From NCBI RefSeq assembly GCF_900079115.1, contig NZ_LT549890.1, positions 2,460,001 to 2,492,000 of the forward strand: DNA of 32,000 bases. The letters are read 5' to 3'. Shown here one piece after another: positions 6,003 through 30,490 of this stretch. A program made the position numbers and the translations under genes. Position 1 is the stretch's first letter. Every line of letters starts with the position of its first letter. Source of the DNA: Saccharolobus solfataricus (GTDB lineage Archaea; Thermoproteota; Thermoprotei_A; Sulfolobales; Sulfolobaceae). The notes beneath the pieces were generated by a model, which was given only the letters and a program-made list of their open reading frames with translations, was not told the origin of the DNA and did no database searches.

Positions 6003-6171
6003 TGTAGTTTTGTGTATAATTATATACAGTATAGACATACTTTAATTTTAAAACATTTGTAATTTTAGGTATAACTAAATTAAGTAATAACATTCTTGAA
6101 AAAATATATTGTTGAAATAAACGTAATATTTATAAAGTATGAATGTAACATAGAATATAGGTGAGTAAAAA

Positions 6172-6405
6172 GTGAGTAGTCTTAAGATATATAAGGAATT
6201 GGATTTGACTAGTTCTTCGTGTGCTGGGCCTATTGGTGAGTTGTCCAGTGTTATTGATGAGTTGAGGGATGGCGAGGCTGTTAAGGTCATTTTGGGTGAT
6301 GAGGCCACTAAGAAGGACATTACTTTGTGGAGTAAGAAGAAGGGCTTGAAAATAGTACAAGAGTCGCAAGAGGGAAGCAAGTACGTATTATTAATAAGCA
6401 AATAG
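6172..6405 (+). CDS. tusA: TusA/SirA-like sulfur carrier
   Basis: 77 aa with a GTG start preceded by GGTGAG. Single Cys in LDLTSSSCAGPIGEL, which is the TusA CPxP position but reads C-A-G-P here. C-terminal pattern ...DITLWSKKKGLKIV is typical of TusA. Confidence 0.7.
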   Translation: MSSLKIYKELDLTSSSCAGPIGELSSVIDELRDGEAVKVILGDEATKKDITLWSKKKGLKIVQESQEGSKYVLLISK

Positions 6406-6417
6406 GAGATGAGGTAA

Positions 6418-7575
<1,158 letters not shown>

Positions 7576-7576
7576 C

Positions 7577-9084
<1,508 letters not shown>

Positions 9085-9153: not shown

Positions 9154-9507
9154 ATGAGAATAGCTTTAACATATGATAAGTCCCAAGAATTAAAACCTTT
9201 AGATCAAGCGGAAATTATAGGGATAATTGATGAGGAGAAAAGGGAAGTTGAACAATATGAGAACCCTGGAATAGGTAGTAAGGAAGCTACGATGTCAGTA
9301 ATTCTGGATTTAAATGCAGATGCAATAGTGGTAGGTCCAAAGTTCTTGTGTCCAGGTTCTTATATGATGTCATATGGTAGACTAAGATACATTCCTACAA
9401 AGTATGGGAATCTCAAGGATGTATTAGAGCATTTAGAGGAGATAAAGAAGAACATGAAGGAAGAATTGGAAGAAGAAATGTATGCAGAAGAAATGGAAGA
9501 GTTTTAA
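9154..9507 (+). CDS. Small NifX/NifB-C-terminal-like (dinitrogenase FeMo-cofactor-biosynthesis-domain-like) protein, acidic tail
   Basis: 117 aa. The pattern MRIAL....(beta)...IIGIID.....E.YENPG....A...IL.L.ADAIVVG resembles that domain family. The call rests on pattern resemblance only. Glu-rich C-terminus. Confidence 0.35.
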   Translation: MRIALTYDKSQELKPLDQAEIIGIIDEEKREVEQYENPGIGSKEATMSVILDLNADAIVVGPKFLCPGSYMMSYGRLRYIPTKYGNLKDVLEHLEEIKKNMKEELEEEMYAEEMEEF

Positions 9508-9740
9508 TCGTTAAATAATTTGTAGCATTCGTCTATCTCATATACGGAGTATATTCTTTCTCGTGCATCATCTAAACAAGGTAATGTTTTTATTAGACCT
9601 TTTTCCCTAAGTATTCTTAGCGCGTATCTTAACGTGCGTGTTGGTAATTTAGTTTGATCTTGTAATTCTTTGAATCTAATCACCTTCTTTTCCAATATAA
9701 CCTTCAATACAAGTTTTGCTGAGGGCGGGAGTTTTTCCAC
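9504..9740 (-). CDS. Small winged-helix DNA-binding protein
   Basis: 78 aa. LVLKVILEKKVIRFKELQDQTKLPTRTLRYALRILREKGLI is a classic wHTH. Its stop overlaps the convergent 9154-9507 stop (TTAA). Confidence 0.6.
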   Translation of the reverse strand: MEKLPPSAKLVLKVILEKKVIRFKELQDQTKLPTRTLRYALRILREKGLIKTLPCLDDARERIYSVYEIDECYKLFND

Positions 9741-9796: not shown

Positions 9797-10219
9797 TTAT
9801 CCCAAATTTTTGGTTAGTAACTTATACCACAATGTACCATTATCATCCATTCCTTTTTCAATTTCATAACCCATTATCATCCATAATTCTATTCCACCTA
9901 ACATATTGTAGACTTTTACTTCTTTAAATAAAGAAGGTTCAGTATAAACAAGCCATGTGGATCTATTGGCGTGTTCGCATATAATTGCTACACCATTTTT
10001 AACTAAATTATTTTTGCTTAATACCAACGGAAATAACTCTTTAAAGTAGTCTAAAGGTAGTAATATTGACCCTGGTATATGATGGTCTTCGTATTCCCAA
10101 GGTTGCCTGACATCAATTAGCGTAATTGCCTTATTCTTGACTAGTTTCCTAATTACTGATGGTGGTACGTTTTGTATGTTTGGATAAAAAGGAGACCTTC
10201 TCTCGGTTATTAACATCAT
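9797..10219 (-). CDS. Single-domain rhodanese-like sulfurtransferase
   Basis: 140 aa. LIDVRQPWEYEDHHIPGSILLP plus the active-site loop CEHANRS. Confidence 0.8.
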   Translation of the reverse strand: MMLITERRSPFYPNIQNVPPSVIRKLVKNKAITLIDVRQPWEYEDHHIPGSILLPLDYFKELFPLVLSKNNLVKNGVAIICEHANRSTWLVYTEPSLFKEVKVYNMLGGIELWMIMGYEIEKGMDDNGTLWYKLLTKNLG

Positions 10220-10361
10220 AATCTAAACCTTTTATTGAGAATTTAAATTTGTTGAAATTTTAGATCTTCAAAACTACTTTTATTTAAAATGAAATTTACA
10301 AAAAATGCATAAACATTATGATAGCTAACTTTTTATTTTCTTAGGAGAATATGCTAACTTG

Positions 10362-11756
10362 ATGGCTATTGATAAGCTGATTGATAAATTTAGAGTTAAT
10401 TTAGATAAGTACAAAAAAATGGGATTGAATCCGCTATCGCTTGCTACAGGATGTGCAGTAAAAGTAGATTTAATAGACACAGTTTACCCAGCTATACGGA
10501 AGATAAGAGACGAATTGGTGAAAAGAAATATAGAAATATTACCTAGAGAAGATGCTGACATTTTCGTAAGTAGAGAGAAGATTTACATAAAGAGAGTGAT
10601 TAACGGCGGAGAGTTTGACGCAGATAGAGCCGTTAGCCTTATTCAGGTTAACCAAGAGACATCAGGGAATCCTGATAAGTTTGCTGAGTTCCTATTGAAA
10701 GTTTACACTTCGATAAAAACTACTAGAAAGCTCACAATAGGTAAAGGTCATTCAATAGTTACCTCAAATCCTAAGGGTGAAGTGGCAGTATTAGATCTAT
10801 TCAGACTAGAAGGAGGAAAGGAGAGATCTTACACTGTTGCAAATAACGACACTATTCAAATAGTAGATCCTTTGGATGACCCTGGATCTCAGATGCAAGT
10901 TGATGTGGCTATTTCCAATTCTTTAAATGACCTTTTTACTAAGGGTGTTTTTCAAGATTTAAGGATGATTCCGGTCGTTGATGCTCCAATGGATGATCTA
11001 AAGGAACAATTGCTGAAAAACGCTGAAAATTATTCTAGGGAATATTCAATTGAATTATTAAGCGATGTTCAACCTAATTCCAAAACATTAATGATAGGAG
11101 CTACTGTAATAGGTAAGTCCGATCATGAATTACCAACATATTACAATAGGGTTAATGAAAACATGGAAATCCTAGTGACCAGACCAGTTGGTGAATTAAC
11201 GCCAATAAATGTGTTTATGTGGATGCTGACTGTTCCCGAGTTAATAGAAGATATGGAAGCTAGGGGAATTACTATACAGAGAGTAGAAGAAGCTAAGAGA
11301 AAAGCCCTAATGTACATGAGGAAACCTAATAATGAAGTAGCTAAAATTATATACGATCATCTACCACCCTTTGGAGGCTCATTTGACGAAAATTCTCATA
11401 TAGCCATGACTACTGATGTTACCGGTCCAGGATTATTTGTAATAAAGGAATTTGCTGAAAAGGCACAAGTAGATGTGGAGTTGTTTGATATCCCAGTAAT
11501 AGATCCGGATATACATGAGTTCGCCACCGAGAATTTTATCATACCAAATTCTACTGCAGGGACAAACGGAGCCATAGTTATTTTCGCTCATAAGAGAGTT
11601 ATAGATGAAATTTTCGATGAATTGAAAAGGAAGTCGCAAGAACCTTATATCATAGGTAAGGTTACTGGGAAAGGAAATGGTACCGTTATAGTCCCACCAA
11701 CTATTACAAAGTACATTCATAGAAATAATGTGTTAAGACAGTTCAAAATAAGGTGA
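10362..11756 (+). CDS. Selenophosphate-synthetase-related (SelD-like) PurM/AIR-synthase superfamily protein
   Basis: N-terminal LATGCAVKV has the same Cys-x2-Lys spacing as E. coli SelD GAGCGCK (C17/K20). [29 protein letters not shown] aligns to Sel[43 protein letters not shown] aligns to AMTDVTGFGLL, and [12 protein letters not shown] to DPQTSGGLLLAV. The track starts at TTG 10359; the ATG at 10362 is more likely. Confidence 0.6.
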
Positions 11757-11961: not shown

Positions 11962-12810
11962 GTGTATCCGCCAGATTTTACATATGTTAGGGTTAGTAGC
12001 TCTGAGGAAGCTACAAAATTTCTAGAATCCCACGACGATGCAAGGCCTCTAGCTGGAGGACAAAGTTTAATTCCAATGCTTAAACTTCGTGTAATATCGC
12101 CCAATTATATAGTTGACCTAAATCCTATAACGTCACTAAGTTATGTAAGAAGTTCCTTTAATTCAACTAAAATTGGTGCTCTAACTCGATATAATGAAAT
12201 ACTAAAGAATGATCTAGTAAGGGTAAACGTTCCATTACTTCATCAAGCAGTTAGGGTAGTAGGAGATATGCAAGTTAGAAACTTAGGTACTATTGGTGGT
12301 AGCGCTGCAAACGCTGATCCATCAGCTGATATCCCCACTGTACTTACTGCGTTAAACGCCGAAATTATTCTATCCTCAGCATCCGGCAATAGATCAGTTA
12401 ATGCTCTAGATTTCTTTAAAGGCGCATTCGCCACAGATTTAAGAAAAGGTGAAATTATCTCTGAAATTGTTTTACCTAACTTGGAGGGATATAGAACAAT
12501 TTACAAAAAGGTCGTAAGAAGAGCTGGAGATTTTGCACTTGTATCTCTAGCATTAGCGATAAAATTGAGGCAAAATGAGATAGAGGATATTAGATTAGCT
12601 TATGGTGGAGTTGGGGAGAGACCATTCAGAGCGTTAGAAGTTGAGAAAAGTGTAATGGGTAAAAGGCTAAATGATGAGTTAGTAGAGGAAATTGTAAGTA
12701 AGGTTTCAAGTCAAGTAAATCCCCCTTCCGATACTAGGGGGAGTTCTTGGTATAGGAGGGAGGTTATGAAGGTTATAACTAGAAAAGCCTTAAAGGAGGT
12801 GTCGGGTTAA
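11962..12810 (+). CDS. Mo-hydroxylase medium (FAD-binding) subunit, CoxM/CutB-like
   Basis: 282 aa with a GTG start. LAGGQSLIPMLKLR and NLGTIGGSAANADP are typical of the FAD-binding subunit of the xanthine dehydrogenase/CODH family. Confidence 0.85.
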   Translation: MYPPDFTYVRVSSSEEATKFLESHDDARPLAGGQSLIPMLKLRVISPNYIVDLNPITSLSYVRSSFNSTKIGALTRYNEILKNDLVRVNVPLLHQAVRVVGDMQVRNLGTIGGSAANADPSADIPTVLTALNAEIILSSASGNRSVNALDFFKGAFATDLRKGEIISEIVLPNLEGYRTIYKKVVRRAGDFALVSLALAIKLRQNEIEDIRLAYGGVGERPFRALEVEKSVMGKRLNDELVEEIVSKVSSQVNPPSDTRGSSWYRREVMKVITRKALKEVSG

Positions 12811-13302
12811 ATGTTAATGGTTAATCAAGGAGAGAAAATTAAAATAAAAGTTAAGGTAAATGGAGTATTGTATGAGAGATATGTAAGTCCAAGGATACTA
12901 TTAGTTGACTTTTTAAGGGAAGAGTTAGGCTTAACGGGAACGAAAATTGGATGTGATACTACAACTTGTGGCGCATGCACAGTTCTATTAAATGGTAAAT
13001 CAGTAAAATCTTGTACATTGTTTGCAGTGCAAGCTGATGGTGCAGAAATAACTACAATTGAGGGTCTCTCAGTAGATTCTAAGCTTCATCCAATTCAAGA
13101 GGCGTTTAAGGAAAATTTCGCCCTTCAGTGTGGTTTCTGTACGCCGGGAATGATAATGCAGGCATATTTCTTGCTGAAAGAAAATCCAAATCCTTCTGAA
13201 GAGGAGGTTAGAGATGGACTTCACGGTAACATTTGTAGGTGTACTGGATATCAAAATATTGTTAAGGCAGTTTTAGATGCTTCAAGGAGGTTGAGAGCAT
13301 GA
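12811..13302 (+). CDS. Mo-hydroxylase small [2Fe-2S] subunit, CoxS/CutC-like
   Basis: 163 aa. [12 protein letters not shown] and CGFCTPG...CRCTGY are the two 2Fe-2S binding motifs. The ATG directly follows the upstream TAA. Confidence 0.9.
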
Positions 13303-15548
13303 GCTACGTTGGCAAGCCAGTAAAAAGAATTTATGACGATAAATTCGTAACAGGTAGAAGCACTTATGTTGACGATATAAGGATACCAGCTCTATATGCC
13401 GGTTTTGTTAGAAGTACTTATCCCCATGCAATTATTAAGAGAATTGATGTTAGTGATGCGTTAAAGGTTAATGGTATAGTTGCAGTATTTACTGCAAAGG
13501 AAATTAACCCCTTATTAAAAGGTGGAATTAGACCTTGGCCTACGTATATAGATATACGATCATTTAGGTACAGTGAGAGGAAGGCATTTCCAGAAAATAA
13601 GGTCAAATATGTAGGTGAACCAGTAGCAATTGTGCTTGGCCAAGACAAGTATAGCGTTAGAGACGCCATAGATAAGGTAGTAGTTGAGTATGAACCCTTA
13701 AAACCAGTTATTAGAATGGAAGAAGCAGAAAAAGATCAAGTAATAATCCATGAGGAGTTAAAAACTAACATATCCTATAAGATTCCATTTAAAGCAGGAG
13801 AAGTTGACAAGGCATTCAGTGAATCTGATAAGGTAGTTAGAGTTGAGGCCATAAATGAAAGATTAATTCCAAATCCCATGGAACCTAGAGGAATTGTATC
13901 TAGGTTTGAAGCAGGAACACTATCAATATGGTACTCTACTCAAGTTCCTCATTATATGCGTTCAGAATTTGCCAGGATACTTGGTATACCCGAAAGTAAG
14001 ATAAAAGTCAGTATGCCGGATGTGGGAGGTGCCTTTGGGGCTAAAGTTCATTTAATGCCAGAAGAGTTAGCAGTAGTAGCATCGTCAATCATTTTAGGGA
14101 GGCCAGTAAGATGGACAGCTACTAGAAGTGAGGAGATGTTAGCCAGTGAAGCGAGGCATAACGTTTTCACTGGTGAGGTAGCAGTTAAAAGAGATGGTAC
14201 TATTCTAGGTATAAAGGGTAAACTATTGCTAGATCTAGGAGCCTATATAACAGTAACTGCCGGTATCCAACCATTAATAATACCAATGATGATACCCGGC
14301 CCCTACAAAATACGTAATCTGGATATCGAAAGCGTTGCAGTCTACACTAATACCCCACCAATTACTATGTACAGAGGAGCCAGTAGACCAGAGGCAACAT
14401 ATATAATTGAAAGGATAATGAGTACAGTGGCTGACGAGTTAGGGTTAGATGATGTAAGTATTAGGGAAAAGAATCTAGTCACTGAATTACCATATACAAA
14501 TCCGTTTGGTTTAAGGTATGATAGTGGAGACTATGTTGGATTATTAAGAGAAGGCGTGAAGAGGTTAGGTTATTACGAACTTAAGAAGTGGGCTGAAGAG
14601 GAGAGAAAGAAGGGGCATAGGGTTGGAGTAGGGTTAGCGTATTATCTGGAAATATGTAGTTTTGGTCCATGGGAATACGCTGAAGTTAGAGTGGATGAGA
14701 GGGGTGATGTATTAGTCGTTACTGGTACAACACCTCATGGACAAGGTACAGAAACTGCAATAGCTCAAATAGTTGCAGACGCCTTACAAATAGATATAAG
14801 TAGAGTTAGGGTAATATGGGGAGATACTGATACTGTTGCAGCCAGTATGGGAACTTATGGTTCAAGATCTGTAACAATAGGTGGCTCTGCAGCAATTAAA
14901 GTTGCAGAAAAAATCTTAGATAAGATGAAGAGAATTGCAGCATCTACTTGGAATGTCGATGTTCAAGAAGTTCAATATGAGAAAGGAGAGTTTAAGTTAA
15001 AGAATGATCCAAGTAAGAAGATGAGTTGGGACGACGTTGCTAGCATAGCGTATAGAAGTCATGATCCTGGGCTAGTAGAGAAGATAATCTACGAGAACGA
15101 TGTGACTTTCCCCTATGGAGTCCATATAGCGACAGTGGAGGTAGATGATACTGGAGTTGCTAGAGTTTTAGAATATAGGGCATACGATGATATTGGGAAG
15201 GTTGTAAATCCAGCATTAGCAGAAGCGCAGATTCATGGTGGAGGTGTCCAGGCTGTTGGACAAGCACTATATGAGCAAGCTTTACTCAATGAGAATGGAC
15301 AGTTAATCGTAACTTATGCAGATTATTATGTCCCAACTGCTGTTGAGGCGCCTAAGTTTACGTCAGTCTTTGCTGATCAATATCATCCATCTAACTATCC
15401 AACTGGTAGTAAGGGTGTTGGAGAGGCAGCATTAATCGTAGGTCCTGCAGTGATAATTAGAGCATTGGAGGACGCTATTGGCACTAGATTCACTAAAACT
15501 CCAACTACTCCAGAGGAAATTTTAAGGGCTATCGCTAGTAAAAGATGA
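13299..15548 (+). CDS. Mo-hydroxylase large molybdopterin subunit (aldehyde oxidoreductase-type, CoxL/CutA-like)
   Basis: 749 aa. [10 protein letters not shown] (GGxFGxK), loop MYRGASRPE, and catalytic-Glu context [13 protein letters not shown] overlap with the small subunit. Confidence 0.9.
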
Positions 15549-15670: not shown

Positions 15671-15991
15671 ATGATAGAAATGTTAGATAAAGTACCGGGT
15701 ATAATTGCCGTATTTAGATTTCGTGAGGGTAAACTTGCAAAAATATACGGTCAAGATATCTCAATGGACCTAGATAAATTAAGTAACATTTTAGTAGAGA
15801 ATATGAGAATTGGCGAAACTGAAGCTAAAGAGTTAAAGTTTCTTGAGCCGTTCAGAGGATTTGCTATGATATTAGATGATACGGGAGTTGTATTCGTAGA
15901 TGACTATTTAGTAATAACTGATGCTAAGAAAACCAATTGGGACTTATTGGTTAAGTCTATTTTAAAAGGAGAGGTGATAAGAAGTGGGTAG
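15671..15991 (+). CDS. Roadblock/LC7-like (possibly DUF2173-type) small soluble protein
   Basis: 106 aa. The LDKVPGIIAVFRFREGKL... pattern is like Roadblock/MglB-type domains. Clear paralogy to the N-terminal half of the next ORF. The family name is recalled from memory only. Confidence 0.4.
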   Translation: MIEMLDKVPGIIAVFRFREGKLAKIYGQDISMDLDKLSNILVENMRIGETEAKELKFLEPFRGFAMILDDTGVVFVDDYLVITDAKKTNWDLLVKSILKGEVIRSG

Positions 15992-16460
15992 TGTAAAGAA
16001 GTTGAAAGGATATGAGGGGCATGTGAAAATTGACGAGAATGGTGAAATTGAAGAAAGTTCAAATATAGAAAATCTCTCTAAACTAGTTGAATTAATAAAA
16101 TTTAATTTAAAAAAGGGTAATGAAGAGGCGAAACAACTAGGTTTTAACAAGCTGAATGGTTTTGCAATGTTTGGTAGCAATAAGTCCTTAACCTTTATGA
16201 AAGGTTTAGCTATAGTTGTAGATAATGATAAAGCTGATTGGCAAGACTTATTCACATATTATACCTATAATAAGACATTTATAATAACTGGAGGGGTATT
16301 GGTTTTACTTTCAATACTATTATTCTATTATGGGCTGCTTACTCCTATGTTTAACTTTATGGCTCCAGAGCCTCGCATTTATATACCAACAATCCTATTA
16401 TTAATAGGAGTAATATTTCTGATACTTTCCAAGTCTACCTTCTCTTACAGATTAGAATGA
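15984..16460 (+). CDS. Membrane-anchored paralogue of 15671-15991 (Roadblock-like domain plus 2 TM helices)
   Basis: 158 aa. GTG start with GAGGTGA 6 nt upstream and an 8-nt overlap with the upstream stop. NEEAKQLGFNKLNGFAMF...VVDNDKADWQDLF parallels ETEAKELKFLEPFRGFAMI...ITDAKKTNWDLLV. The C-terminus has two hydrophobic helices. Confidence 0.45.
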   Translation: MGSVKKLKGYEGHVKIDENGEIEESSNIENLSKLVELIKFNLKKGNEEAKQLGFNKLNGFAMFGSNKSLTFMKGLAIVVDNDKADWQDLFTYYTYNKTFIITGGVLVLLSILLFYYGLLTPMFNFMAPEPRIYIPTILLLIGVIFLILSKSTFSYRLE

Positions 16461-16542: not shown

Positions 16543-16977
16543 ATGAAAGAGCTAAAAGGAACCAAAACTGCTGAAAACTTGAGGCATGCATTCTGCGGAG
16601 AAGCAATGGCTAACCGAAGGTATCTATATTTCGCTAAAAGAGCTGATGAGGAAGGATACCCTGAAATTGCTGGATTGTTAAGAAGCATAGCAGAAGGTGA
16701 AACTGCCCACGCATTTGGTCACTTAGATTTCATAAGGCAAGGAGGAATTGGCGATCCAGCTACTGATAAACCAATAGGAACATTAGAGCAAATGTTAGAA
16801 TCAGCAGTAGCAGGAGAAACTTACGAATGGACGCAAATGTACCCAGGCTATGCTAAGGTAGCTAGAGAAGAAGGGTTTAATGAAATTGCAGAATGGTTTG
16901 AAACCTTGGCAAGAGCTGAGAAAAGCCATGCTGAGAAATTCACTGGAGTGCTTAACCAACTAAAGGGAGGCAAGTAA
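16543..16977 (+). CDS. Rubrerythrin lacking a rubredoxin domain (sulerythrin-type)
   Basis: 144 aa. Di-iron ExxH motifs EGETAHA and AEKSHAE. There is no CxxC pair anywhere. Strong resemblance to my recollection of Sulfolobus sulerythrin (MK.LKGTKTAENL...RRYLYFAKRADEEGYPEIAGLLRSIAEGETAHAFGHLDF). Confidence 0.9.
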   Translation: MKELKGTKTAENLRHAFCGEAMANRRYLYFAKRADEEGYPEIAGLLRSIAEGETAHAFGHLDFIRQGGIGDPATDKPIGTLEQMLESAVAGETYEWTQMYPGYAKVAREEGFNEIAEWFETLARAEKSHAEKFTGVLNQLKGGK

Positions 16978-18164
16978 TGTATTCTTTAAATCCAAGTAAT
17001 TCTACTTTTTTTGACTCTAATAAATTATTATCAGAATTTATAAGGCAAGCGAGCGTTTGTCACGGTTGCAGATTATGTTTCAACTATTGCGATTCTTTTC
17101 CCCTTATGTTTACTTATACTGATAAGAAAGGCCCCAAAAACTTAACCTTAGATGACTTGTTTAATGTAGCCTCTAAGTGCTTTCACTGTAAGATGTGCTA
17201 CGTCAATTGTCCCTATGTTCCTCCTCACGAATTTAACATGGACTTTCCAAGCCTAATGGAATGGGCGTGGCTATACTATAAGAAAAATCGAGGATTAACT
17301 GTAAGGGATTTTATCTTTGAAATGCTAGATGGTGTGAAGTTTGCAAGGCCCTTAGCTAAAGTAATTATGGAAAAGAACAAGGAGTTATTAGGTATTCACA
17401 AAGAAGCCCCCACGTTACCAGTAGCGGAGAAAGGTTTAAGGGAAAGAGTTAAGCCCAAACGTATCGATAGTCCCAAAGCAAGGGTTGCACTATTTCCCAC
17501 TTGTTTAATTGAGAATTTCTTCCCAGAAATTGGCGAGGATTTAGTAGAAATATACAACGAATTAGGGATAGAAGTAATTATTCCTAATTTCGTTTGTTGT
17601 GGAGCTCCAATGTTGGATTCTGGTGACGTTGATAGGCTTAAGAAGAATGCTGAGTATAATATCAAAATAATTGAGGATTTAATAAAGGAAGGTTATGATG
17701 TAGTTTCGCCTATACCTACTTGTACGTTAATGATTAAGGAGTACAAGAAGGTTCTTGATAGAGAAGTACCTAAGGTTTATGATGCAATGGAGTATCTTTT
17801 AAAATTAAAGAATGAGGGCAAGATAGAGCTAAAGGGTAAGATTGAGAAGAGTGTGTATTATCATCCTCCATGCCACCTTAAGTTCTTACAATTAGGATTA
17901 CCTGGGGTTAGATTATTAAGGTCAATGGGAGCGAAAGTCGATATTTCCAATAATGGTTGTTCCGGTATAGATGGGGGTTGGGGATTAAGAAATTATGACA
18001 CTGCTAAAAGAGTAGGAAGTAAAATGATGGAAGCTTTTAAACAGAGTAAAGCTGATCTTTTTTCAACTGAATGCCCTCTGGCTGGGCTTCAGATAGAAAA
18101 ATCTTCTGGTAGAAGGCCATTACATCCAATTCAATTGTTAAAGGAGGCGATGAAAAATGGTTAA
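16977..18164 (+). CDS. HdrD/GlpC-like Fe-S oxidoreductase (2x[4Fe-4S] ferredoxin domain plus two CCG-type domains)
   Basis: 395 aa. CHGCRLCFNYCDSFP and CFHCKMCYVNCPY (CxxCxxCxxxC x2). CCG domain FPTC...NFVCCGAPM and a second degenerate one, HPPCH...NGCSGIDGG. TAATG overlap with the rubrerythrin stop. Confidence 0.8.
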   Translation: MYSLNPSNSTFFDSNKLLSEFIRQASVCHGCRLCFNYCDSFPLMFTYTDKKGPKNLTLDDLFNVASKCFHCKMCYVNCPYVPPHEFNMDFPSLMEWAWLYYKKNRGLTVRDFIFEMLDGVKFARPLAKVIMEKNKELLGIHKEAPTLPVAEKGLRERVKPKRIDSPKARVALFPTCLIENFFPEIGEDLVEIYNELGIEVIIPNFVCCGAPMLDSGDVDRLKKNAEYNIKIIEDLIKEGYDVVSPIPTCTLMIKEYKKVLDREVPKVYDAMEYLLKLKNEGKIELKGKIEKSVYYHPPCHLKFLQLGLPGVRLLRSMGAKVDISNNGCSGIDGGWGLRNYDTAKRVGSKMMEAFKQSKADLFSTECPLAGLQIEKSSGRRPLHPIQLLKEAMKNG

Positions 18165-18723
18165 AATAACCCTACAAGATATCTTACCTTGGAGAACATA
18201 TGAAAAAGTTCGAATGGATAGAATAAGGAGGATTATTGAGGTAAAGAATAAGAGAAGAATAGAGCTAGGTGATAGATTAACATTATTGTTTGAAAATAGG
18301 GATACTGTTCTTCAGCAAATTCAAGAGATGGTTTACCTCGATAAAAAAGAGAAAAACGAAGACATACTAGAAGAAATAAAGATATACTCAACATTGCTTC
18401 CATGTGACGGTAAGATAAAAGCCTCTCTATATATACATTCCTATGACTTTAAGGATCTGGATTGGGTCTATGATAATTTGAAAGGCATATATAACTCAGT
18501 ATTCTTAAGAGTAGGAAACAAACTAATTCAAGGAATTCCAGAGGGAGGAAGAGATCAAGGAAGAGAGTTCTCTACGGTCCAGTATTTGACATTTGATCTT
18601 GAGGGAGAGAAAAGTACCGATATGGAAGTTCATGTAATTCACGAGAAGTATAGATATTCAACTAAGATTGACAAAAGCTTAGCGGAGGATTTAATTAGAG
18701 AAGCGTATGATATTTGTGAATGA
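18157..18723 (+). CDS. Conserved hypothetical protein (DUF3501-like, by recollection)
   Basis: 188 aa. 8-nt overlap with the upstream Fe-S oxidoreductase, with AGGAGG upstream. I recall a family of this size commonly following rubrerythrin/HdrD-like genes. No catalytic motif recognised. Confidence 0.5.
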   Translation: MVKITLQDILPWRTYEKVRMDRIRRIIEVKNKRRIELGDRLTLLFENRDTVLQQIQEMVYLDKKEKNEDILEEIKIYSTLLPCDGKIKASLYIHSYDFKDLDWVYDNLKGIYNSVFLRVGNKLIQGIPEGGRDQGREFSTVQYLTFDLEGEKSTDMEVHVIHEKYRYSTKIDKSLAEDLIREAYDICE

Positions 18724-21777: not shown

Positions 21778-24024
21778 CTAAATTGGGACTAGGGACCATA
21801 AACTCACTATCACACTACTAAATCCCATCGCAAGTGCAGCATATTCCGGTGGTAACGTTATGAATGGGTAAAATACTCCTGCTGCAATAGGTATTATTGC
21901 TGTATTATAGCCAAAGGCCCATGCCAAATTCTCCTTAATTTTTCTAACTGCCAATTCAGTTTGCTCAAATAACCCTATTATGTCATCTAATGAATTAACC
22001 ACAACTTTACCAGCACTCTTAGCCAAATCAGTACCGCTAGAAATAGCTATACCTATGTCAGCTTCTCTCATAGCGATGGAATCATTTATTCCGTCACCTA
22101 TAAACATTACTTTATTGCCATTTTCCCTTAATTCCTTCACCAACTCCGCTTTATCATCTGGAGTTAACTCCTTACGAACTTCAACACCTAACTCCTTCCC
22201 TATTTCATCAGCATAATTACTACTATCTCCAGTTGCTATTATTATCCTAATTCCCCTTCCTTTCAGATAGCTTATTACCTTTTTGGCATCATCCCTGAGC
22301 TTATCCCTTATGTTAACTATCCCTCCAGCATTTCCATTAATGCAAATAAAAATATCTCCTTCATCTTCGACATTCCAGTTACAATTGTCCCTCACGAAAT
22401 CTTTACTCCCCACAATTACATCGTTACCATTTACTCTAGCATATATTCCTCTTCCAGGAAACTCCTCAAACTGCTCAATCTCTCCCGCTCTTACGTTCAT
22501 TTTATGGAATGCTTTAGCGATAGGATGTATACTTCTACTTTCTGCAATTGCAGCCAAATTTAACGCTCCTTCAATGAACTCCTTCTTACTAACAATTACA
22601 TATTCACCCTCAGTTACAGTACCAGTTTTGTCCAAGATTGCAACGTTGATATTTCTCATTTCCTCAAAAATACTACCATCCCTAATTATAATACCTCTTT
22701 TTAATGCTCTCCGAACACTAACTAACATTGCCATAGGCGATGCTAACCCTAGTGCACAAGGACACGCTGCAGCTAATACTGCTACACTGAAAAGTAGAGA
22801 AGAATAGAGGTTATAGTCCAAGACAAATTTCCAAACTAGGAACGTAAGTGCTGAGATGCTAATAACTATAGGCACAAATATTGAGGAAACTTTGTCCACT
22901 AGATTTTGGATGGAAACTCTTGTATTATAAGCCCCTCTTACACTCTCTGTTACTTGTACAATATAACTTCTATCCCAGTTTCTAGTAACGTATACTTCTA
23001 AGTAACCATTTACTAAAATACCACCAGCTAGGACGTTATCTCCTTTTTTCTTCAGTACTGGCTTCTGCTCTCCAGTAAGTATAGCCTCGTTTACTTCTCC
23101 TTCTCCATTCTCAATTATTCCATCAGCTGGTATTCTCTCTCCCGCCCTAACAATTACTACATCGCCTACTTTTAGTTCATTAGAGTTAACTACTCTTCCG
23201 TCTTTCAGAGTGGCTTTATAAGGTTCTATACGTATCTCTGCACTCATCTTAGCTTTAATATACGCTTCTAGTGTTTTACCCACAAGTATGAAGGTTATTA
23301 ATAATGAAGCGTCGGCGTAAAATGTGTTGTGAAGGAAAATACTAGAGAGCCACAATATGTTTGATGCTAAGGAGACTAGTACATCCATATTAGTAGTTTT
23401 ATTCTTTAATGCCCTATACGCACCTTTATGAAATCTTAATCCTGAGTAAAACTGTACTGCTATGGATACCAATATGCCAAAAAAGAATGGAAGTAGATAT
23501 GTTAAAGGTGTAAATATTATACCTACTGCCAATCTCCTTAATAAGTCATGGAAATCCTTATAGAGTATACTCTTTTCACTACGTTGTTCATTTACTATTT
23601 CCCCCTTAACTCCAGCTTCCTTTAATATCTCCTCTGGAGTAGTGGTCTCTGGATTGTACTCTACGCTCACTATTCCTAAACCTGGATTGGACTTTACATC
23701 AACTACCCCCTTAACGTTTTCGAATTTCCTCTCTATTTTAGGCATTTCCTCTGGGTTAACATTCAATTTTATAGTAAACTTCTCTGTTGCAACATCATAT
23801 CCAGCTTTTCTCACGGCCTTTACTAATTCCTTTAATCTTACATTACCACTTAGGATTACTTTTGCGCTCCCAGTTGCTAGATTTACTTCGGCATCTTTTA
23901 CACCACTAACTGACTTCAAAGATTTAGAGACAGTTGTTACGCATGTTGCACAATGCATCCCAACTATTCTTAGTTGTTCCTCATTATCTGTAATTCTTAG
24001 CTCTTCTTTCTTCTCAGTGGCCAT
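21778..24024 (-). CDS. copA: Copper-translocating P1B-type ATPase
   Basis: N-terminal HMA GMHCATCV, then TGE, CPC (AACPCALGLASP), DKTGT and GDGINDS. The track start at 24045 would lie inside copM. The ATG at 24024 (MATEKKEEL) overlaps the copM stop by 11 nt and is preferred. Confidence 0.9.
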   Translation of the reverse strand: MATEKKEELRITDNEEQLRIVGMHCATCVTTVSKSLKSVSGVKDAEVNLATGSAKVILSGNVRLKELVKAVRKAGYDVATEKFTIKLNVNPEEMPKIERKFENVKGVVDVKSNPGLGIVSVEYNPETTTPEEILKEAGVKGEIVNEQRSEKSILYKDFHDLLRRLAVGIIFTPLTYLLPFFFGILVSIAVQFYSGLRFHKGAYRALKNKTTNMDVLVSLASNILWLSSIFLHNTFYADASLLITFILVGKTLEAYIKAKMSAEIRIEPYKATLKDGRVVNSNELKVGDVVIVRAGERIPADGIIENGEGEVNEAILTGEQKPVLKKKGDNVLAGGILVNGYLEVYVTRNWDRSYIVQVTESVRGAYNTRVSIQNLVDKVSSIFVPIVISISALTFLVWKFVLDYNLYSSLLFSVAVLAAACPCALGLASPMAMLVSVRRALKRGIIIRDGSIFEEMRNINVAILDKTGTVTEGEYVIVSKKEFIEGALNLAAIAESRSIHPIAKAFHKMNVRAGEIEQFEEFPGRGIYARVNGNDVIVGSKDFVRDNCNWNVEDEGDIFICINGNAGGIVNIRDKLRDDAKKVISYLKGRGIRIIIATGDSSNYADEIGKELGVEVRKELTPDDKAELVKELRENGNKVMFIGDGINDSIAMREADIGIAISSGTDLAKSAGKVVVNSLDDIIGLFEQTELAVRKIKENLAWAFGYNTAIIPIAAGVFYPFITLPPEYAALAMGFSSVIVSLWSLVPI

Positions 24025-24184
24025 GTGGCATTCCCTTAGGTCCATTCCTTAAATACTCTTCCGGATTTCTCTGAAACTCCCTTAGACAATGAGATGAGCA
24101 GAAATAGTAGATTTTTCCCTTATACATTGTCTTATATTGACTTTTCTCATCTACTTCCATTCCACAAACCGGATCGATTATCAT
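24014..24184 (-). CDS. copM: TRASH/YHS-domain copper metallochaperone (56 aa)
   Basis: Absent from the supplied track because it is under 60 aa. My own translation gives MIIDPVCGMEVDEKSQYKTMYKGKIYYFCSSHCLREFQRNPEEYLRNGPKGMPHGH*. DPVCGM...YYFCS..C...F is the TRASH/YHS metal-binding pattern. It sits between copR and copA, as in the described Sulfolobus cop cluster. Confidence 0.8.
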   Translation of the reverse strand: MIIDPVCGMEVDEKSQYKTMYKGKIYYFCSSHCLREFQRNPEEYLRNGPKGMPHGH

Positions 24185-24274: not shown

Positions 24275-24766
24275 CTAATGTAAGTGCAAGCCATTGTTGC
24301 GTGCAAATTTTTCCTTTAATCCAGACAAGCAAGAATTGCAACAAGCATAATACGTTTTCCTTCCTACCTTATAGGTCAAGGGATTATCATATATTTCCTT
24401 ACCGCAGTAATCACATTTAACTACAAAACTGCTCTTGCCTATGAAAACTAAATCCTTTTCTTTTACATTTTTTAACTTATTTTCTAAATCTTCTAAAGTG
24501 TTAGCTCTTATCATGTTAATAAATCTACCATCCAACAGTTTGTAACACTCGTCACTTTGACAAGATTCAGAAATGGCGAAGGCAATAAATGGCTCATTCT
24601 GAAATTTAATAGTGAATTTAACCCCTCTTCTTTTAAGGTTCCTCAAAAGTCTTGTGGCAGTGCTCCTACTGATATTAAGCCTTTTTGATAGTTCAGTGAC
24701 ACTTATCCTAGAATCTTCTCTTAAAATCTCCAGCGCTCTAAACTCTAAATCTGTCAACTTTTCCAT
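24275..24766 (-). CDS. copR: Copper-responsive transcription regulator: Lrp/AsnC-type HTH plus C-terminal TRASH domain
   Basis: 163 aa. LEILREDSRISVTELSKRLNISRSTATRLLRNL (HTH). C-terminal CDYCGKEI...YYACCNSCLSGL (TRASH Cys pattern). Confidence 0.8.
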   Translation of the reverse strand: MEKLTDLEFRALEILREDSRISVTELSKRLNISRSTATRLLRNLKRRGVKFTIKFQNEPFIAFAISESCQSDECYKLLDGRFINMIRANTLEDLENKLKNVKEKDLVFIGKSSFVVKCDYCGKEIYDNPLTYKVGRKTYYACCNSCLSGLKEKFARNNGLHLH

Positions 24767-25983: not shown

Positions 25984-27657
25984 CTATTTAACATAAATTT
26001 CATAATGATAAAGTTGAACTGCTATCCCCCATAGCATTAAGATTACGCCTAGGTCCATTCCAGCATACGTTGACTGCGGTCCTATACTCGGTAAGGTCCA
26101 CATTAGGCCCAATAATAATAAGGAAACAATGAAAATTATTATAATTCCATAAAATGCGGCTTTCTTGCTCCAACTGGTCGCTATATTGTTACCTATAGCG
26201 GCTACTGGTTTTCTCCCAAGTATAAAAGCGGCGACTCTTCTTAACATGTATATTGTAAGTAATATAACTGGTATTAAAATGATTCCATTCACGACAGTAG
26301 GAAATTCTAAGAAGTTTACAAATGTTCCTGCCAAGGATAAGGAGGATACACTAGCTAACAGTATTTCCATAGGAGTAATGTTCATTTTAATTACTTTAGT
26401 CTCAGATTTTGAAACTGGGGTATTACCTTGTTTTACTGGCCATAAGTATACAATTATCCCTATAATAACTAACGGTAAACCTAAGTATTCTATCTCTTGT
26501 GAGAATGGAACTGGAACACCAGGTTCCAAGTATCCCCATACTGATAGTTCTATGAGATATATCGCCAAAGTAGAAACTATCCAAGTCCAGAACTTTCTTT
26601 TAGTAACACGTAAATCGTCACTGGGATCCAAGAAGGGAAGGAATATTAGAATTAGAAGACCTATAATGAGAACTGCTAAAACCAATATTGGAGTTATTGG
26701 CATTCCATTAGGTAGAAGGAAGTCAACAAACTTGTAGAGGAATAAGAAGAACCATGGGGGATATGGTTGTACACTGGTAGACTCTGGTGATCCCGCTTGT
26801 GGGGCCGGGTAAGGATTTATAACTATTGGTAATCCATTGATATTTGCTAGTAAGTTAGGAACAAATAGTATTATACCCCATGTTAATAATACGATTGATA
26901 ACATATAAACAAAGTTTCTAGGCCACCATTCATTAAATCTCTGCTGTTCTTCTTTCGTGTAGTATGCGGGGACTTTAGGTTTATCCCTAGCTGAGGGTGT
27001 CATTCCATATCTCTCCGCTAACATGAAGTGAAATAGGAATAGAACTCCCAGTAGAAATACCAACAATATATGCCATCCTAACAATCTATCAAATAATTCG
27101 GATCTCACTAATGGATCTGATGATAATGCAGCACTTCCTCCAGGACCAAATAACCAACCTACTATGGTTGTTGCGCCAGGTATACCAGTACCAACTAATA
27201 ACTGATCTCCAATATCTATCGCATTGACTCCAAGAACATCACTGACTAAGCTATATCCGAAGAATGATGCCCCTAGTGTTAACAATAATAGAATCACTCC
27301 AGTTATCCATTGTAATTCTCTTGGTTTTTTATAAGCCCCCTTATAGAAGTTTCTGAACATGTGTATATATGCCAAGATAATCATAATGTATGCTCCATAT
27401 AAGTGACTAAATAATAAGACTGGGCCATACGGAACGCTGGAAATTATACTTTGTGTTGACTGGTACGCGTAGGCTGGTTGATAATACATTAAGAGGAATA
27501 GACCAGTTATAACAGTATATATGAAAGCCGCAGCTACCATTGCACCTAGCCAATAGGATATATTATACATGTAATCCGGTGTCTTAAATAATGGCGCTTC
27601 AGTTACACCTACTCTATCAATTATCGTATCTATAATACCTTTTTTTTCCTCACCCAT
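25984..27657 (-). CDS. soxC: Di-haem cytochrome b-like subunit of the SoxABCD quinol oxidase
   Basis: 557 aa, polytopic. Paired His in helix B (HLYGAYIMIILAYIH, Hx13H) and helix D (HILLVFLLGVLFLFH, Hx13H). 8-nt overlap with soxB. Confidence 0.85.
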   Translation of the reverse strand: MGEEKKGIIDTIIDRVGVTEAPLFKTPDYMYNISYWLGAMVAAAFIYTVITGLFLLMYYQPAYAYQSTQSIISSVPYGPVLLFSHLYGAYIMIILAYIHMFRNFYKGAYKKPRELQWITGVILLLLTLGASFFGYSLVSDVLGVNAIDIGDQLLVGTGIPGATTIVGWLFGPGGSAALSSDPLVRSELFDRLLGWHILLVFLLGVLFLFHFMLAERYGMTPSARDKPKVPAYYTKEEQQRFNEWWPRNFVYMLSIVLLTWGIILFVPNLLANINGLPIVINPYPAPQAGSPESTSVQPYPPWFFLFLYKFVDFLLPNGMPITPILVLAVLIIGLLILIFLPFLDPSDDLRVTKRKFWTWIVSTLAIYLIELSVWGYLEPGVPVPFSQEIEYLGLPLVIIGIIVYLWPVKQGNTPVSKSETKVIKMNITPMEILLASVSSLSLAGTFVNFLEFPTVVNGIILIPVILLTIYMLRRVAAFILGRKPVAAIGNNIATSWSKKAAFYGIIIIFIVSLLLLGLMWTLPSIGPQSTYAGMDLGVILMLWGIAVQLYHYEIYVK

Positions 27658-29185
27658 TGTTTTTCACCCCATCTTTAGCCATTACGGGTAAATTAGAGGG
27701 AGAAGTTGAGGGAGAAGGAGATGAAAAAATACCTTGTTTAGAAGCATAAGCCAATGCATCGACAATTGCCACAAAGATTGTGACTAATAGTCCCGGAATC
27801 CCTATTTCAGCTAGCATTGATTCCAATAGGTTATAGGGTTGAAATACTGATGGATACGCTATCATTCTTCTCAGCATTCCTAGATAACCAATTACTGACA
27901 TCGTATATCCTACACCTAAAAATGGTGCAGTCCACCATATCATCCCAATTCTCATCCATTTAGAGGCTTGCTCGCTAAAGTTGAACCCACCAAATGTGCT
28001 TTTTAGCATATCCAAAAATACTGTAGTGAAGCCCATTACTATTAAAGTCCATATCATTAAGTGGAAATGTCCTACTACATAATAGGTATTGTGGAATAGT
28101 GGATTTATTGAATTCTCTGGTAAAACGAGTGCTTGAACACCAGCTAATATGAATCCTACTAATGCAATTAGTCCTCCCATTCCTACTGGATCTTTCCAAT
28201 TATATTTTTGAGAAAGAAGTATTGTGAGTCCCAAATTCAATACGGTAAGACCAGATCCCGAGGCTAAAATTAATGTGGATAAGTTTACCCATATTCTCAA
28301 GTCTATTGGTAATGGCCATGTTTGTAGGTGGTGAACCCATATAAGCATTGAGCCTATTGATAGCAAGTATATATTCCATCTAGCCCACTTTTCACTGAAG
28401 AGAGATCTTCCAGCATATTTCGGAATATAGTAGTATAATGCACCAAATAACGGGAATGGAACGTAATATACTACTGGATGCCCATAGAACCAAAATAGCA
28501 ATGCCCACAGTAATGGGTTCACTGGAACTCCTGCAAAGAAATACAGTGTGTACCAAAGCGTTGATGCAGCAAGAGCGGGAAGCGTTATTGCAATAACTAT
28601 TGCAAAGGCTACTCCATAAGCTCCAAAAATGTTTAGTCTTTCATTTTTTGGCTTTGTTGCATATGCATCTGCAATAAGTATTATGAACATTGCAGTCTGT
28701 AGTATGAAAGCTAAGGTTAAGGATAGATATGCCATCCCCATTAGAGCTGGTGTAGTATAGAATAGAAAAGCGTGGAAGTTACTACCAGACTCTATCGCCA
28801 ATGGAGGGTACATATACCAACCCATATCTGGTGATCCAGCTAGTCCAATCGCTAAGAAGATATTAGACAACCAGAAGAAAATTGCCATTAACTTAGTGTG
28901 AACTATAGATAAGTTACTCTTATACATTGCAAATGCTATAACAGCAGCTGCAGCTAAAGGTACAAATCCGAACATACCAGCCCAGCCGTGAATGGTTAAT
29001 GCACTGTAGTATAGTTCTCCCACGTTGGGGGAATTACTATTATATGTCAAGTACGTTCTCAGATTCATGGCTGCTATTCCCAGAACTCCTAGCCAGAATA
29101 TAGAACCTATAGTGTAAAGCCAAACTACGTTTAACGTATTTTTAGGGATAACAGTATCCTTTATCTGATTTAAAAGTTGGCTCAT
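27650..29185 (-). CDS. soxB: Haem-copper oxidase subunit I
   Basis: 511 aa. WFYGHPVVYY (CuB His / cross-linked Tyr region), WVHHLQ (CuB His pair), VVGHFHLMIW (haem ligands). Confidence 0.9.
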   Translation of the reverse strand: MSQLLNQIKDTVIPKNTLNVVWLYTIGSIFWLGVLGIAAMNLRTYLTYNSNSPNVGELYYSALTIHGWAGMFGFVPLAAAAVIAFAMYKSNLSIVHTKLMAIFFWLSNIFLAIGLAGSPDMGWYMYPPLAIESGSNFHAFLFYTTPALMGMAYLSLTLAFILQTAMFIILIADAYATKPKNERLNIFGAYGVAFAIVIAITLPALAASTLWYTLYFFAGVPVNPLLWALLFWFYGHPVVYYVPFPLFGALYYYIPKYAGRSLFSEKWARWNIYLLSIGSMLIWVHHLQTWPLPIDLRIWVNLSTLILASGSGLTVLNLGLTILLSQKYNWKDPVGMGGLIALVGFILAGVQALVLPENSINPLFHNTYYVVGHFHLMIWTLIVMGFTTVFLDMLKSTFGGFNFSEQASKWMRIGMIWWTAPFLGVGYTMSVIGYLGMLRRMIAYPSVFQPYNLLESMLAEIGIPGLLVTIFVAIVDALAYASKQGIFSSPSPSTSPSNLPVMAKDGVKNNG

Positions 29186-29691
29186 GATACCACCTCCAAA
29201 GTTCCAGTCATGTATGATGAAGAGTAGCCATCATATTCCGCATTATACCATGTGTAATTCCCTGGCTGATTGGGAGTTACGAAATAAACGTAACTTGTAA
29301 TTCCAGGCACATTATTAACGTTAATTAATCCATTTGGAAGTCTTAGGTAGAATCCAGTATCTACTTGAGGGGAATTTATTATTAATACTACTGGTTCACT
29401 TACATTAGCTATGATAACGTTGGGAATCCATCTGTATTGCACTGCAGTGAGATTTACTACTAGTGTACCGTTTATAACTTCAGAGTACTCACCAGAAGGT
29501 GGTGGGTGAGCTTCGAAATACTTTACTATTTCTTGAGCTTGTGGAGGTAATCCTGAAAACTCTGGTAAACCGTATCTTAAACTAAAGCTCTTTCCAGTCA
29601 AAATGTAATAGACATTCCAACTGAAGAATGTTGCAACCAAGATCAACATAATTATAAACCACACTTCTTCAGCGTGTTCCTTAATATCCAT
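29182..29691 (-). CDS. soxA: Quinol oxidase subunit II-like protein lacking CuA ligands
   Basis: 169 aa with one N-terminal TM and a cupredoxin-like C-terminus. The protein contains no cysteine at all, so no CuA centre is possible. ATGA overlap with soxB. Confidence 0.8.
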   Translation of the reverse strand: MDIKEHAEEVWFIIMLILVATFFSWNVYYILTGKSFSLRYGLPEFSGLPPQAQEIVKYFEAHPPPSGEYSEVINGTLVVNLTAVQYRWIPNVIIANVSEPVVLIINSPQVDTGFYLRLPNGLINVNNVPGITSYVYFVTPNQPGNYTWYNAEYDGYSSSYMTGTLEVVS

Positions 29692-29725
29692 ACTTTACAC
29701 CTAATTCTTTTTTAGAGTATTGAGG

Positions 29726-29733
29726 CTTATAAA
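29726..29733 (-). promoter_or_regulatory. Candidate TATA box of the soxABCD promoter
   Basis: The minus strand reads TTTATAAG about 35-42 nt upstream of the soxA ATG. AGGTG lies 8 nt upstream of the ATG. It overlaps the repeated AAATCTTT motif. Confidence 0.3.
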
Positions 29734-30046
29734 TCTTTATTTGAAATCTTTCGAAGATTTAATAACTTAAACTCTGTTAAAGTTGAGTTAATTAAAACTA
29801 GAATTACATAACATAATATACTATAAGAAAAATTGTAGGTATTCGCATTCACTATTAATCGGAAACTGGTTTACTAACTCAATATTTTTACCTAAATATA
29901 AATATATATGTTATTTACTTTATCATATAATTTCTAACACGTAAAGGTTAGTGCTTATTTTTACTTATTTATTTAGTTAATTTCATTGCATAATAAATTA
30001 CCTCGTAAAAGAGGGAGTGTTCTCATGTAGTCATCTTATTCGATAA

Positions 30047-30355
30047 TTAGTAGTAAAATTCTATCAAGTTTTCTCTAATATACTGTACTCCCTTCAAGTA
30101 TGCCTCGTTTAAGGGAGTTCTCCCCCTTGAGAAGATATGAGGATATATTACATTCAACAAGGCCAAACTGTATTCCGTCATCCTCATACTCCTAGTAACA
30201 GCTTTAGTATCCCTAGCCAGCCTCGCCAAATGAGACCTACACCAAGAATTATGACTCTCCACAAGATAAGTATACTTCTTACCCACTACACGATTATCGA
30301 GAACTTGATAAACACAGTAATAATCAGTATAGTTGACCTTACTCCTTGTGAATCT
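30047..30355 (-). pseudogene. C-terminal remnant of an IS1-family-like transposase
   Basis: The track ORF 30047-30469 (-) contains YTDYYCVYQVLDNRVVGKKYTYLVESHNSWCRSHLARLARDTKAVTRSMRM. This parallels the IS1 InsB C-terminus (TDGW..Y...[29 protein letters not shown]). The N-terminal ~40 codons of the ORF are AT-rich non-homologous sequence, and no catalytic N-terminal part is present. Confidence 0.55.
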
Positions 30356-30490
30356 TGATATTATATGGAAACGAAGATAATAACAATTCAATTTGTAAAT
30401 ATTCAATATGCTAACAAAGCAGTTTGCAATGTAAAATTTTAATATAAAAATTTTTAAGGTATAGCTCACATTCTAAACTAGGTAATTAGT

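Follow-up and report, generated by a model that had tools for sequence, protein, structure and literature searches.

The gene at positions 10362..11756 (+) of a 32,000 nt stretch of Saccharolobus solfataricus DNA (assembly GCF_900079115.1, contig NZ_LT549890.1, positions 2,460,001-2,492,000, forward strand; the whole stretch is referred to as the window) encodes SSO2635, a member of the published archaeal SelD-like family (NF038049, arCOG00643), whose nearest characterised relative is selenophosphate synthetase (SelD). Sequence comparison and structure prediction assign this family to the ATP-utilising enzymes of the PurM superfamily. In the best-supported reading, to which we give about an even chance, its members would perform a SelD-type reaction on sulfur, namely the ATP-dependent phosphorylation of sulfane sulfur or sulfide delivered by a relay. 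Neither the gene family nor the thiophosphate hypothesis attached to it is new: the two have been in print since 2014, and the family is part of the NCBI annotation.

The coding sequence is an open reading frame (ORF) without interruption at 10359/10362-11756 (+), which yields 465 aa from a TTG or 464 aa plus stop from an ATG. Its product matches S. solfataricus AKA72852.1 exactly. S. solfataricus entries of identical sequence are named 'SelD-related putative sulfur metabolism protein', and the 465-aa form corresponds to SSO2635. The protein blocks pointed out in a first-pass annotation of this DNA were all found in the translation (LATGCAVKV at residues 27-35, IVDPLDDP...NSLNDLF at 167-192 and further blocks at 349-359 and 396-407), and its estimate of a length excess of about 120 aa over SelD agrees with the 117 aa by which the protein (464 aa) exceeds the E. 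coli enzyme (347 aa).

Family membership was established with hidden Markov models (HMMs). The NCBIfam equivalog model NF038049 (SelD_rel_HyperS) scored 725.8 bits against a cut-off of 250 (E 1.7e-218), and the match extends over the full length, with residues 9-463 on profile positions 2-465. The best HMM outside the family was the SelD model PRK14105 (E 4.4e-13); the equivalog cut-offs for SelD itself were failed with both PRK14105 (48.8 versus 291 bits) and TIGR00476 (22.4 versus 125 bits). A HypE model gave a weak match (22.3 versus a cut-off of 251.6 bits), and in Pfam AIRS_C alone was detected, below threshold (21.8 versus 23.1 bits). True SelDs were retrieved by the SelD-like family profile only at E 1e-19 to 1e-7.

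Searching the PDB by sequence, either with the protein itself or with the profile of its family, yielded only marginal matches (5l16, E 0.0019; HypE, E 0.041), so that structure prediction and Foldseek were needed. An AlphaFold (AF2) model with a 27-sequence family alignment as input reached a pLDDT of 92.3 and a pTM of 0.91. In a Foldseek search against the PDB the top 14 matches were all SelD (E 1e-17 to 1e-14), with human SPS1 in first place (E 1.2e-17) and the selenophosphate synthetases of Leishmania, E. coli and Aquifex among them, followed by HypE (5.6e-14), ThiL (1e-12) and PurM (1e-10). There were 123 PDB matches at E <= 0.001, and the best 50 of these 123 were all SelD, HypE, ThiL or PurM-type. 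Predicted structure and fold search thus agree on a two-domain PurM fold. The first-pass annotation had taken the protein for a divergent SelD relative, had called for an HMM and structure comparison with these four, and had named a robust grouping with HypE or ThiL as evidence to the contrary. SelD is the best HMM outside the family, accounts for all 14 top structural matches and ranks first in both comparisons, so that the assignment as a divergent SelD relative, and not as a member of the HypE, ThiL or PurM groups, was upheld.

The SelD-like protein has its best structural match in SelD/SPS (PDB 3U0O, 2ZOD, 2YYE, 3FD5, 5L16), with which it also shares an N-terminal Cys-x-x-Lys loop, an equivalent spacing to the first Asp, and the four Asp and one Asn described below. 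It differs from SelD in that identity is 16-20%, that no selenoprotein (Sec) form was seen, and that it is found in organisms without known selenium traits. ThiL (thiamine-monophosphate kinase) and PurM (AIR synthetase) have the two-domain PurM fold and an Asp-based ATP/metal site in common with it, whereas the Cys-x-x-Lys loop is present in neither and both rank lower in the structural comparison.

To map the residues, we aligned the family by MAFFT with seven SelDs, among them that of E. coli; the family alignment itself comprises 27 sequences that are 40-74% identical to the window protein. In the combined alignment C31 and K34 correspond to C17 and K20 of E. coli SelD, and D64, D163, N186, D190 and D352 to D51, D68, N87, D91 and D227. 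All seven residues are invariant in the 27 family sequences, and for D190 this extends to the SelDs as well. The nucleophile loop (residues 27-36; 10440..10469, +) carries C31, the sole Cys of the protein, and K34, and its residues G30, C31, V33, K34, V35 and D36 are invariant; the G-C-x-x-K loop is kept in 118 of 118 full-length close homologues. Only at residues 29-32, within this loop, does pLDDT fall below 50, which fits a mobile loop. The first Asp strand, REDADIF (residues 62-68; 10545..10565, +), contains D64 and is aligned to E. coli RDDAAVY, with R62 and D64 invariant, and the second (residues 161-170; 10842..10871, +) contains D163 according to the family and SelD alignments. N186 and D190 belong to the motif NSLND (residues 186-190; 10917..10931, +) and D352 to TTDVTGPG (residues 350-357; 11409..11432, +), in which G355 and G357 are invariant as well. 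Both motifs were also paired with their SelD equivalents by hhalign. As hhalign of the family against the single E. coli SelD sequence covered just residues 182-380 at a low probability of 24.6%, the mapping of the N-terminal residues rests on MAFFT with the seven SelDs. A loop with the spacing of SelD Cys17/Lys20 had been proposed in the first-pass annotation, where a loss of the ATP-binding Asp residues was regarded as refuting; the alignment confirms the loop, and the four Asp and the Asn are all retained.

Between the first and the second Asp strand lies a family-specific insert (residues ~69-156; 10566..10829, +), which is a gap in all seven SelDs of the alignment and amounts to 85-100 extra residues between D64 and D163. 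The first-pass annotation had noted some 90-100 extra residues following the Cys loop. Extra residues do exist, but their location had to be corrected, since they do not come straight after the loop: the distance from C31 to D64 is 33 residues, versus 34 from C17 to D51 in SelD. The insert is predicted to fold as strand-strand-helix-strand-strand. Its invariant positions in the 27-sequence alignment are R78, the motif GKGHSI (residues 127-132; 10740..10757, +) and D145, and GKGHSI is likewise kept in 118 of 118 close homologues. A motif GK(G/A)H(S/T) between the first and second Asp strands was defined in the present analysis as a mark of the family and is present in the window protein. The canonical GGH(S/T) strand of SelD, in contrast, is lost, as E. 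coli AGGHSI aligns with the non-conserved LLSDVQPNS. A weak hhalign match (E 0.013) pairs residues 106-150 of the insert with SelD 116-160, i.e. the alpha2-beta4 segment with its helix and GGHS strand, which suggests that the insert might be a duplicated or relocated copy of this unit that supplies the motif. Probably, the insert with GKGHSI replaces the lost GGH(S/T) strand and contributes to an acceptor or partner site.

A sub-clade of full-length paralogues (P0132, P0139, P0143, P0149, P0150 and P0154; 440-489 aa) was found to have degenerate active-site motifs. In these K34 is replaced by Glu (GCSxE) and REDADIF, GKGHS, NNDT, NSLND and TTDVTGPG are lost, while the Cys is mostly kept; their N-termini resemble those of Thaumarchaeota-type members. 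These paralogues may serve the active form as pseudoenzyme partners.

For the analysis of gene neighbourhoods 80 genomic loci were fetched and their neighbours were clustered; 79 of these carry a full SelD-like gene. TusA is encoded within 800 bp in 58 of the 79 loci, often abutting and often in two copies, and at least one sulfur-relay gene (TusA, rhodanese, DsrE or PF04143 transporter) lies within 5 kb in 68 of 79. Rhodanese genes occur within 5 kb in 25 loci and a YeeE/YedE-type (PF04143) transporter in 26. An acylphosphatase (PF00708) is encoded as a separate gene immediately 3' in 25/79 loci and fused in 17/79 (42/79 in total); none was found adjacent in the Sulfolobales and Thaumarchaeota loci. 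These sulfur-relay neighbours fit a role in chalcogen activation. In bacteria, genuine SelD is linked to YedE and SirA-like/YedF (PMC5322559), and the order transporter/TusA-like/SelD-like parallels the order YedE/SirA-like(YedF)/SelD described there.

The window shows the sulfur-trafficking neighbourhood that is typical of the family. Divergent to the SelD-like gene lies a gene for a single-domain rhodanese of 140 aa (9797..10219, -; PF00581, E 4.3e-12), an arrangement that was also found in three other loci (L002, L003, L004). Further upstream, Pfam, NCBIfam and hmmsearch identified a putative operon (6169..9084, +) that may supply sulfane sulfur and consists of TusA (6169-6405, +; hmmsearch E 1.9e-16, CAGP motif), a type III SQR-like flavoprotein (6418-7575, +), DsrE (7577-7957, +) and a DUF1641 repeat protein (7951-9084, +). 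The same four-gene unit stands beside SelD-like in L002, L005 and L007. Its last product contains four tandem repeats of ~70 aa, and the Pfam model DUF1641 fits only the C-terminal 39 aa. Between this unit and the rhodanese gene two small genes are located, one for a 117-aa acidic-tailed protein with no family match (9154-9507, +) and one for a 78-aa winged-helix regulator (9504-9740, -) that may control the divergent rhodanese/SelD-like pair.

A TATA-like box, TTTTTATTTT, was read at 10330..10339 (+), ~27 nt 5' of the ATG. By analogy to known Sulfolobus promoter geometry, TTTTTATTTT would give the SelD-like gene a promoter of its own, from which a leaderless or short-leader mRNA would be made. 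Between this gene and the next lie a T-rich stretch and a separate AT-rich region. Because of these elements the gene looks monocistronic; it is transcribed divergently from the rhodanese gene.

In one locus (L020; CBDCMH010000005.1, a 406-kb contig labelled as Acidobacteriota metagenome-assembled genome (MAG)) the SelD-like cluster adjoins sHdr-like genes. There, an archaeal-type SelD-like/TusA/rhodanese/acylphosphatase/TusA cluster stands directly beside hdrC1, hdrB1, hdrA, hyp, hdrB2C2 and an SQR-like gene; the bacterial origin is given by the label only. A cysteine-synthase-like gene (PF00291) for a pyridoxal phosphate (PLP)-dependent enzyme is divergent upstream of SelD-like in L063, L067, L073 and L078 (Caldisphaera, Acidilobus, Hestiella), and ThiF-family neighbours occur in five further loci; both come into question as consumers of an activated sulfur donor. 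Two genes beyond the PF00291 gene, the same four loci encode a GT2 glycosyltransferase, and a GT2 gene recurs ~3 kb off in Thaumarchaeota and Acidilobales loci. GT2 was considered as a SenB-like consumer of the product and set aside, as GT2 genes are common, spacing and orientation vary, and synteny within a clade is not independent evidence.

The SelD-like family was described by Li, Jiang, Ni, Liu & Zhang (2014, BMC Genomics 15:908; PMC4210487) in Sulfolobales and Thermoproteales. These authors reported its conserved Cys, Asp and Asn, an acylphosphatase fusion in Thermoproteales, and SirA/TusA, 'Prx-like' (DsrE-type), rhodanese and Fe-S oxidoreductase as neighbours. They proposed thiophosphate synthesis from sulfur species and ATP, with an acyl-(thio)phosphate in their model 1, and left an unknown role in selenium metabolism possible (PMC4210487). 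The statement in the first-pass annotation that an archaeal family of this kind had been catalogued and not characterised is thereby borne out (PMC4210487, NF038049), and its interpretation, supported in part, is a rediscovery, because the hypothesis had already been published by Li et al. A literature search by locus tag returned one proteomics mention only, and in the Sulfolobales sulfur-metabolism papers and reviews consulted the SelD-like gene is not mentioned.

The window gene is a member of the family of Li et al. (2014), with equal Cys, Asp and Asn residues, neighbour types and hypothesis, and nothing in their description differs for the gene itself. The description of the family is revised here in five ways. 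The occurrence of SelD-like extends beyond Sulfolobales and Thermoproteales and is not tied to hyperthermophilic S-reducers; besides the Thermoproteales fusion, many lineages have the acylphosphatase as a separate gene next to SelD-like; the insert is now defined together with its GKGHSI motif; catalytically degenerate paralogues exist; and the orthologue of S. islandicus appears in a list of essential genes.

The distribution of SelD-like is wider than published, although the family is small: a search at E <= 1e-3 matched only 190 clusters (50% identity) among 1.84 billion representatives. Members were also found in Desulfurococcales, Acidilobales, Ignisphaera, Pyrodictiaceae and Thermofilaceae, in many marine and groundwater Thaumarchaeota MAGs, and in Hydrothermarchaeales and others. 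A divergent bacterial clade includes MAGs of Bdellovibrionales and Gemmatimonadetes, and genes for sigma-70, PNPase and an outer membrane protein (OMP) lie on one contig of this clade. In this bacterial sister clade (L082-L086, including freshwater metagenomes) the CGCxxK loop and GKGHS are kept while the neighbours differ. In one type of neighbourhood a 467-510 aa protein of no assigned family and an EamA transporter are encoded directly upstream. In the other, an acyl carrier protein (ACP)-like protein of 79 aa, a DltA-like adenylation enzyme and a 424-aa rhodanese-domain protein are encoded downstream, which looks like a small biosynthetic cluster.

In a transposon sequencing (Tn-seq) study of S. 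islandicus M.16.4, M164_2661 is included in the list of essential genes (PMC6249222, Suppl. Data 4). This gene is assigned to COG0709 and arCOG00643 with the orthologues SSO2635, Saci_2268, ST0618 and Msed_0781, and its immediate neighbours are absent from the list (PMC6249222). The S. islandicus proteins share a 90%-identity cluster with the window protein. In heterotrophically grown S. solfataricus, SSO2635 had the highest mass spectrometry (MS) score in Table 3 of PMC2739297, where it was found together with FadD-1 in a phospho-stained 2D-gel spot. Essentiality under aerobic heterotrophy argues against a purely dissimilatory 'S-reducer' function and favours housekeeping sulfur mobilisation; it is the listing of the S. 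islandicus orthologue as essential in heterotrophic culture on which a housekeeping role is based.

Transferred to sulfur, the SelD mechanism would proceed as follows. A dimer would bind ATP via D64, D163, D190, D352 and N186, the residues that align with the metal/ATP ligands of SelD. The mobile N-terminal loop with C31 and K34 would take up the chalcogen (most probably sulfane sulfur in persulfide form, or else sulfide) from a sulfur relay and carry it into the ATP site. This relay might be formed by rhodanese and the TusA/DsrE/SQR-like proteins in the window, and by TusA, YeeE/YedE-type importers and rhodanese in other lineages. By analogy to SelD, transfer of a phosphoryl group from ATP to sulfur would give thiophosphate or a protein-bound S-phospho species together with AMP and Pi. 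Given the place of the S. islandicus orthologue among the listed essential genes, the product would be an activated sulfur donor for a housekeeping process. The acylphosphatase, which is found adjacent or fused in about half of the lineages, probably hydrolyses a phospho-anhydride-type product or intermediate.

Several points weigh against this mechanism. Since the canonical GGH(S/T) is lost, the acceptor chemistry may differ from that of SelD, and an acylphosphatase that hydrolysed the product would make the reaction futile unless release of sulfide is its purpose. No relay gene is found within 5 kb in 11 of the 79 loci. The relay neighbours belong to families with both sulfur and selenium subfamilies, and NCBIfam typing of the transporter and TusA neighbours gave similar scores for both types of model, slightly better ones for the selenium type, all of them below cut-off. 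Among the neighbours in the 79 loci there was no conserved consumer of thiophosphate, the PLP-dependent enzyme and ThiF neighbours being present in only 4-5 loci. Finally, the function of SelD-like is still rated as speculative in a 2026 review.

As an alternative, the enzyme could dehydrate or displace a group by ATP-dependent phosphorylation, in the manner of HypE and other PurM-like enzymes, on its own C31 or on TusA, so that no free thiophosphate is made; we regard this as unlikely. HypE acts in hydrogenase maturation, where it catalyses the ATP-dependent dehydration of a Cys-thiocarbamate, and HypF carries an acylphosphatase domain that serves HypE. Candidates for the group in question are a Cys-S-thiosulfonate, a thiocarbamate and other acyl/thio adducts, and the acylphosphatase would handle a substrate of the acyl-phosphate type, in parallel to the partnership of HypE with the domain in HypF. 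HypE is the second-ranked structural class among the Foldseek matches listed, it has a weak HMM match, and the SelD-like protein, like HypE, has one essential-looking Cys on a flexible terminal segment. The acylphosphatase that is fused or adjacent in 42/79 loci, the TusA gene that abuts SelD-like in most loci and a conserved insert that could dock a protein partner can all be read in the same direction, and so can the acyl-(thio)phosphate in model 1 of Li et al. (PMC4210487). In addition, TusA/DsrE3A of Metallosphaera are reported to carry thiosulfonates (PMC4175335). However, SelD ranks above HypE in sequence as well as structure comparisons and the HypE cut-off was missed widely. The Lys three residues past the Cys and the equivalent of Asn87 are SelD-specific and retained, and the Cys is N-terminal, while that of HypE is C-terminal and has no counterpart here. 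Moreover, neither Hyp genes nor the YrdC/Kae1-type carbamoyl-transfer domains of HypF were seen in the neighbourhoods, and an acylphosphatase is not adjacent in the Sulfolobales and Thaumarchaeota loci.

Somewhat less probable still is a cryptic use of selenium, in which SelD-like would be a true selenide, water dikinase for an unrecognised selenium-dependent process in archaea without known selenium traits. All catalytic residues of SelD are retained, which this explanation would account for, and the best models for the PF04143 and TusA-like neighbours are selen_YedE_FdhT and YedF, albeit below cut-off. The gene order mirrors that of YedE/SirA-like/SelD (PMC5322559), and Li et al. left a selenium role possible (PMC4210487). 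Against it stand the wide failure of both SelD cut-offs and the loss of canonical GGH(S/T), as well as the type III SQR-like, DsrE and sHdr-like neighbours, which are tied to sulfur oxidation. The gene is listed as essential in S. islandicus cultures (PMC6249222). Standard Sulfolobus media are not known to contain added selenium. As the first-pass annotation had remarked for selA/selB, none of the 41 larger window ORFs that were scanned contains a selA/selB/mnmH/yqeB/yqeC-type domain, and according to Li et al. no SelA/SelB/MnmH/YqeB/YqeC-type gene is found in any genome that carries SelD-like (PMC4210487). A link to molybdenum hydroxylase maturation was suggested by the genes directly after SelD-like, which encode CutB (FAD; 11962-12810, +), CutC (2Fe-2S; 12811-13302, +) and CutA (Mo; 13299-15548, +) and begin 206 bp past its stop codon. 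The product of these genes (SSO2636, 2637, 2639) is probably the glyceraldehyde/aldehyde oxidoreductase that acts in the branched Entner-Doudoroff pathway. SelD-like could then provide the terminal sulfido ligand of the Mo cofactor, a link considered because orphan SelD is a precedent, as it serves selenium-dependent Mo hydroxylases; a third selenium trait, in which SelD acts with YqeB and YqeC for a selenium cofactor, is known (summarised in PMC4210487). A different CutB/CutC pair of S. islandicus, M164_0242/0243, is among the listed essential genes, but M164_2662 is not (PMC6249222), and the SelD-like and Cut units have separate promoter-like regions. As the adjacency is limited to Saccharolobus among the 79 loci, the link was rejected as a general explanation, and we consider it very improbable. 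What probability remains falls to a substrate that is not foreseen here.

Further genes of the window were recorded as well. Behind the Cut genes, two DUF2173 genes (15671-16460) precede a trio for rubrerythrin, a CCG-domain (HdrB-like) Fe-S protein and DUF3501 (16543-18723, +); the trio is found again, no more than a few kb from SelD-like, in Saccharolobus and a Thermoproteus MAG (L002, L072). A CopA-type P-type ATPase with HMA domain and a TRASH-domain winged helix-turn-helix regulator are encoded at 21778-24045 and 24275-24766 (both -), and such an ATPase gene lies within ~10 kb of SelD-like in five loci of different lineages (also L002, L047, L052, L072). A terminal oxidase cluster (cytochrome b, COX1, small subunit, Rieske; 25984-31465) and an IS1-like transposase fragment (30047-30469) are unrelated to SelD-like, and no tRNA was found in the window.

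Taken together, SSO2635 and its relatives represent an apparently essential enzyme with a complete set of SelD-type catalytic residues and no assigned reaction. The reaction is directly testable, because the orthologue is listed as essential and tractable genetic hosts are available (S. islandicus, S. acidocaldarius). Thiophosphate or an equivalent S-phospho donor, fed by TusA and rhodanese, may, as a tentative proposal that we hold for less probable than the reaction itself, be an unrecognised and locally essential currency of activated sulfur in Sulfolobales, Thermoproteales and many other Thermoproteota, in part of the Thaumarchaeota and in a small clade of bacteria. If true, thiophosphate would be the sulfur counterpart of selenophosphate, a new biological sulfur donor and a direct evolutionary link from the metabolism of sulfur to that of selenium.

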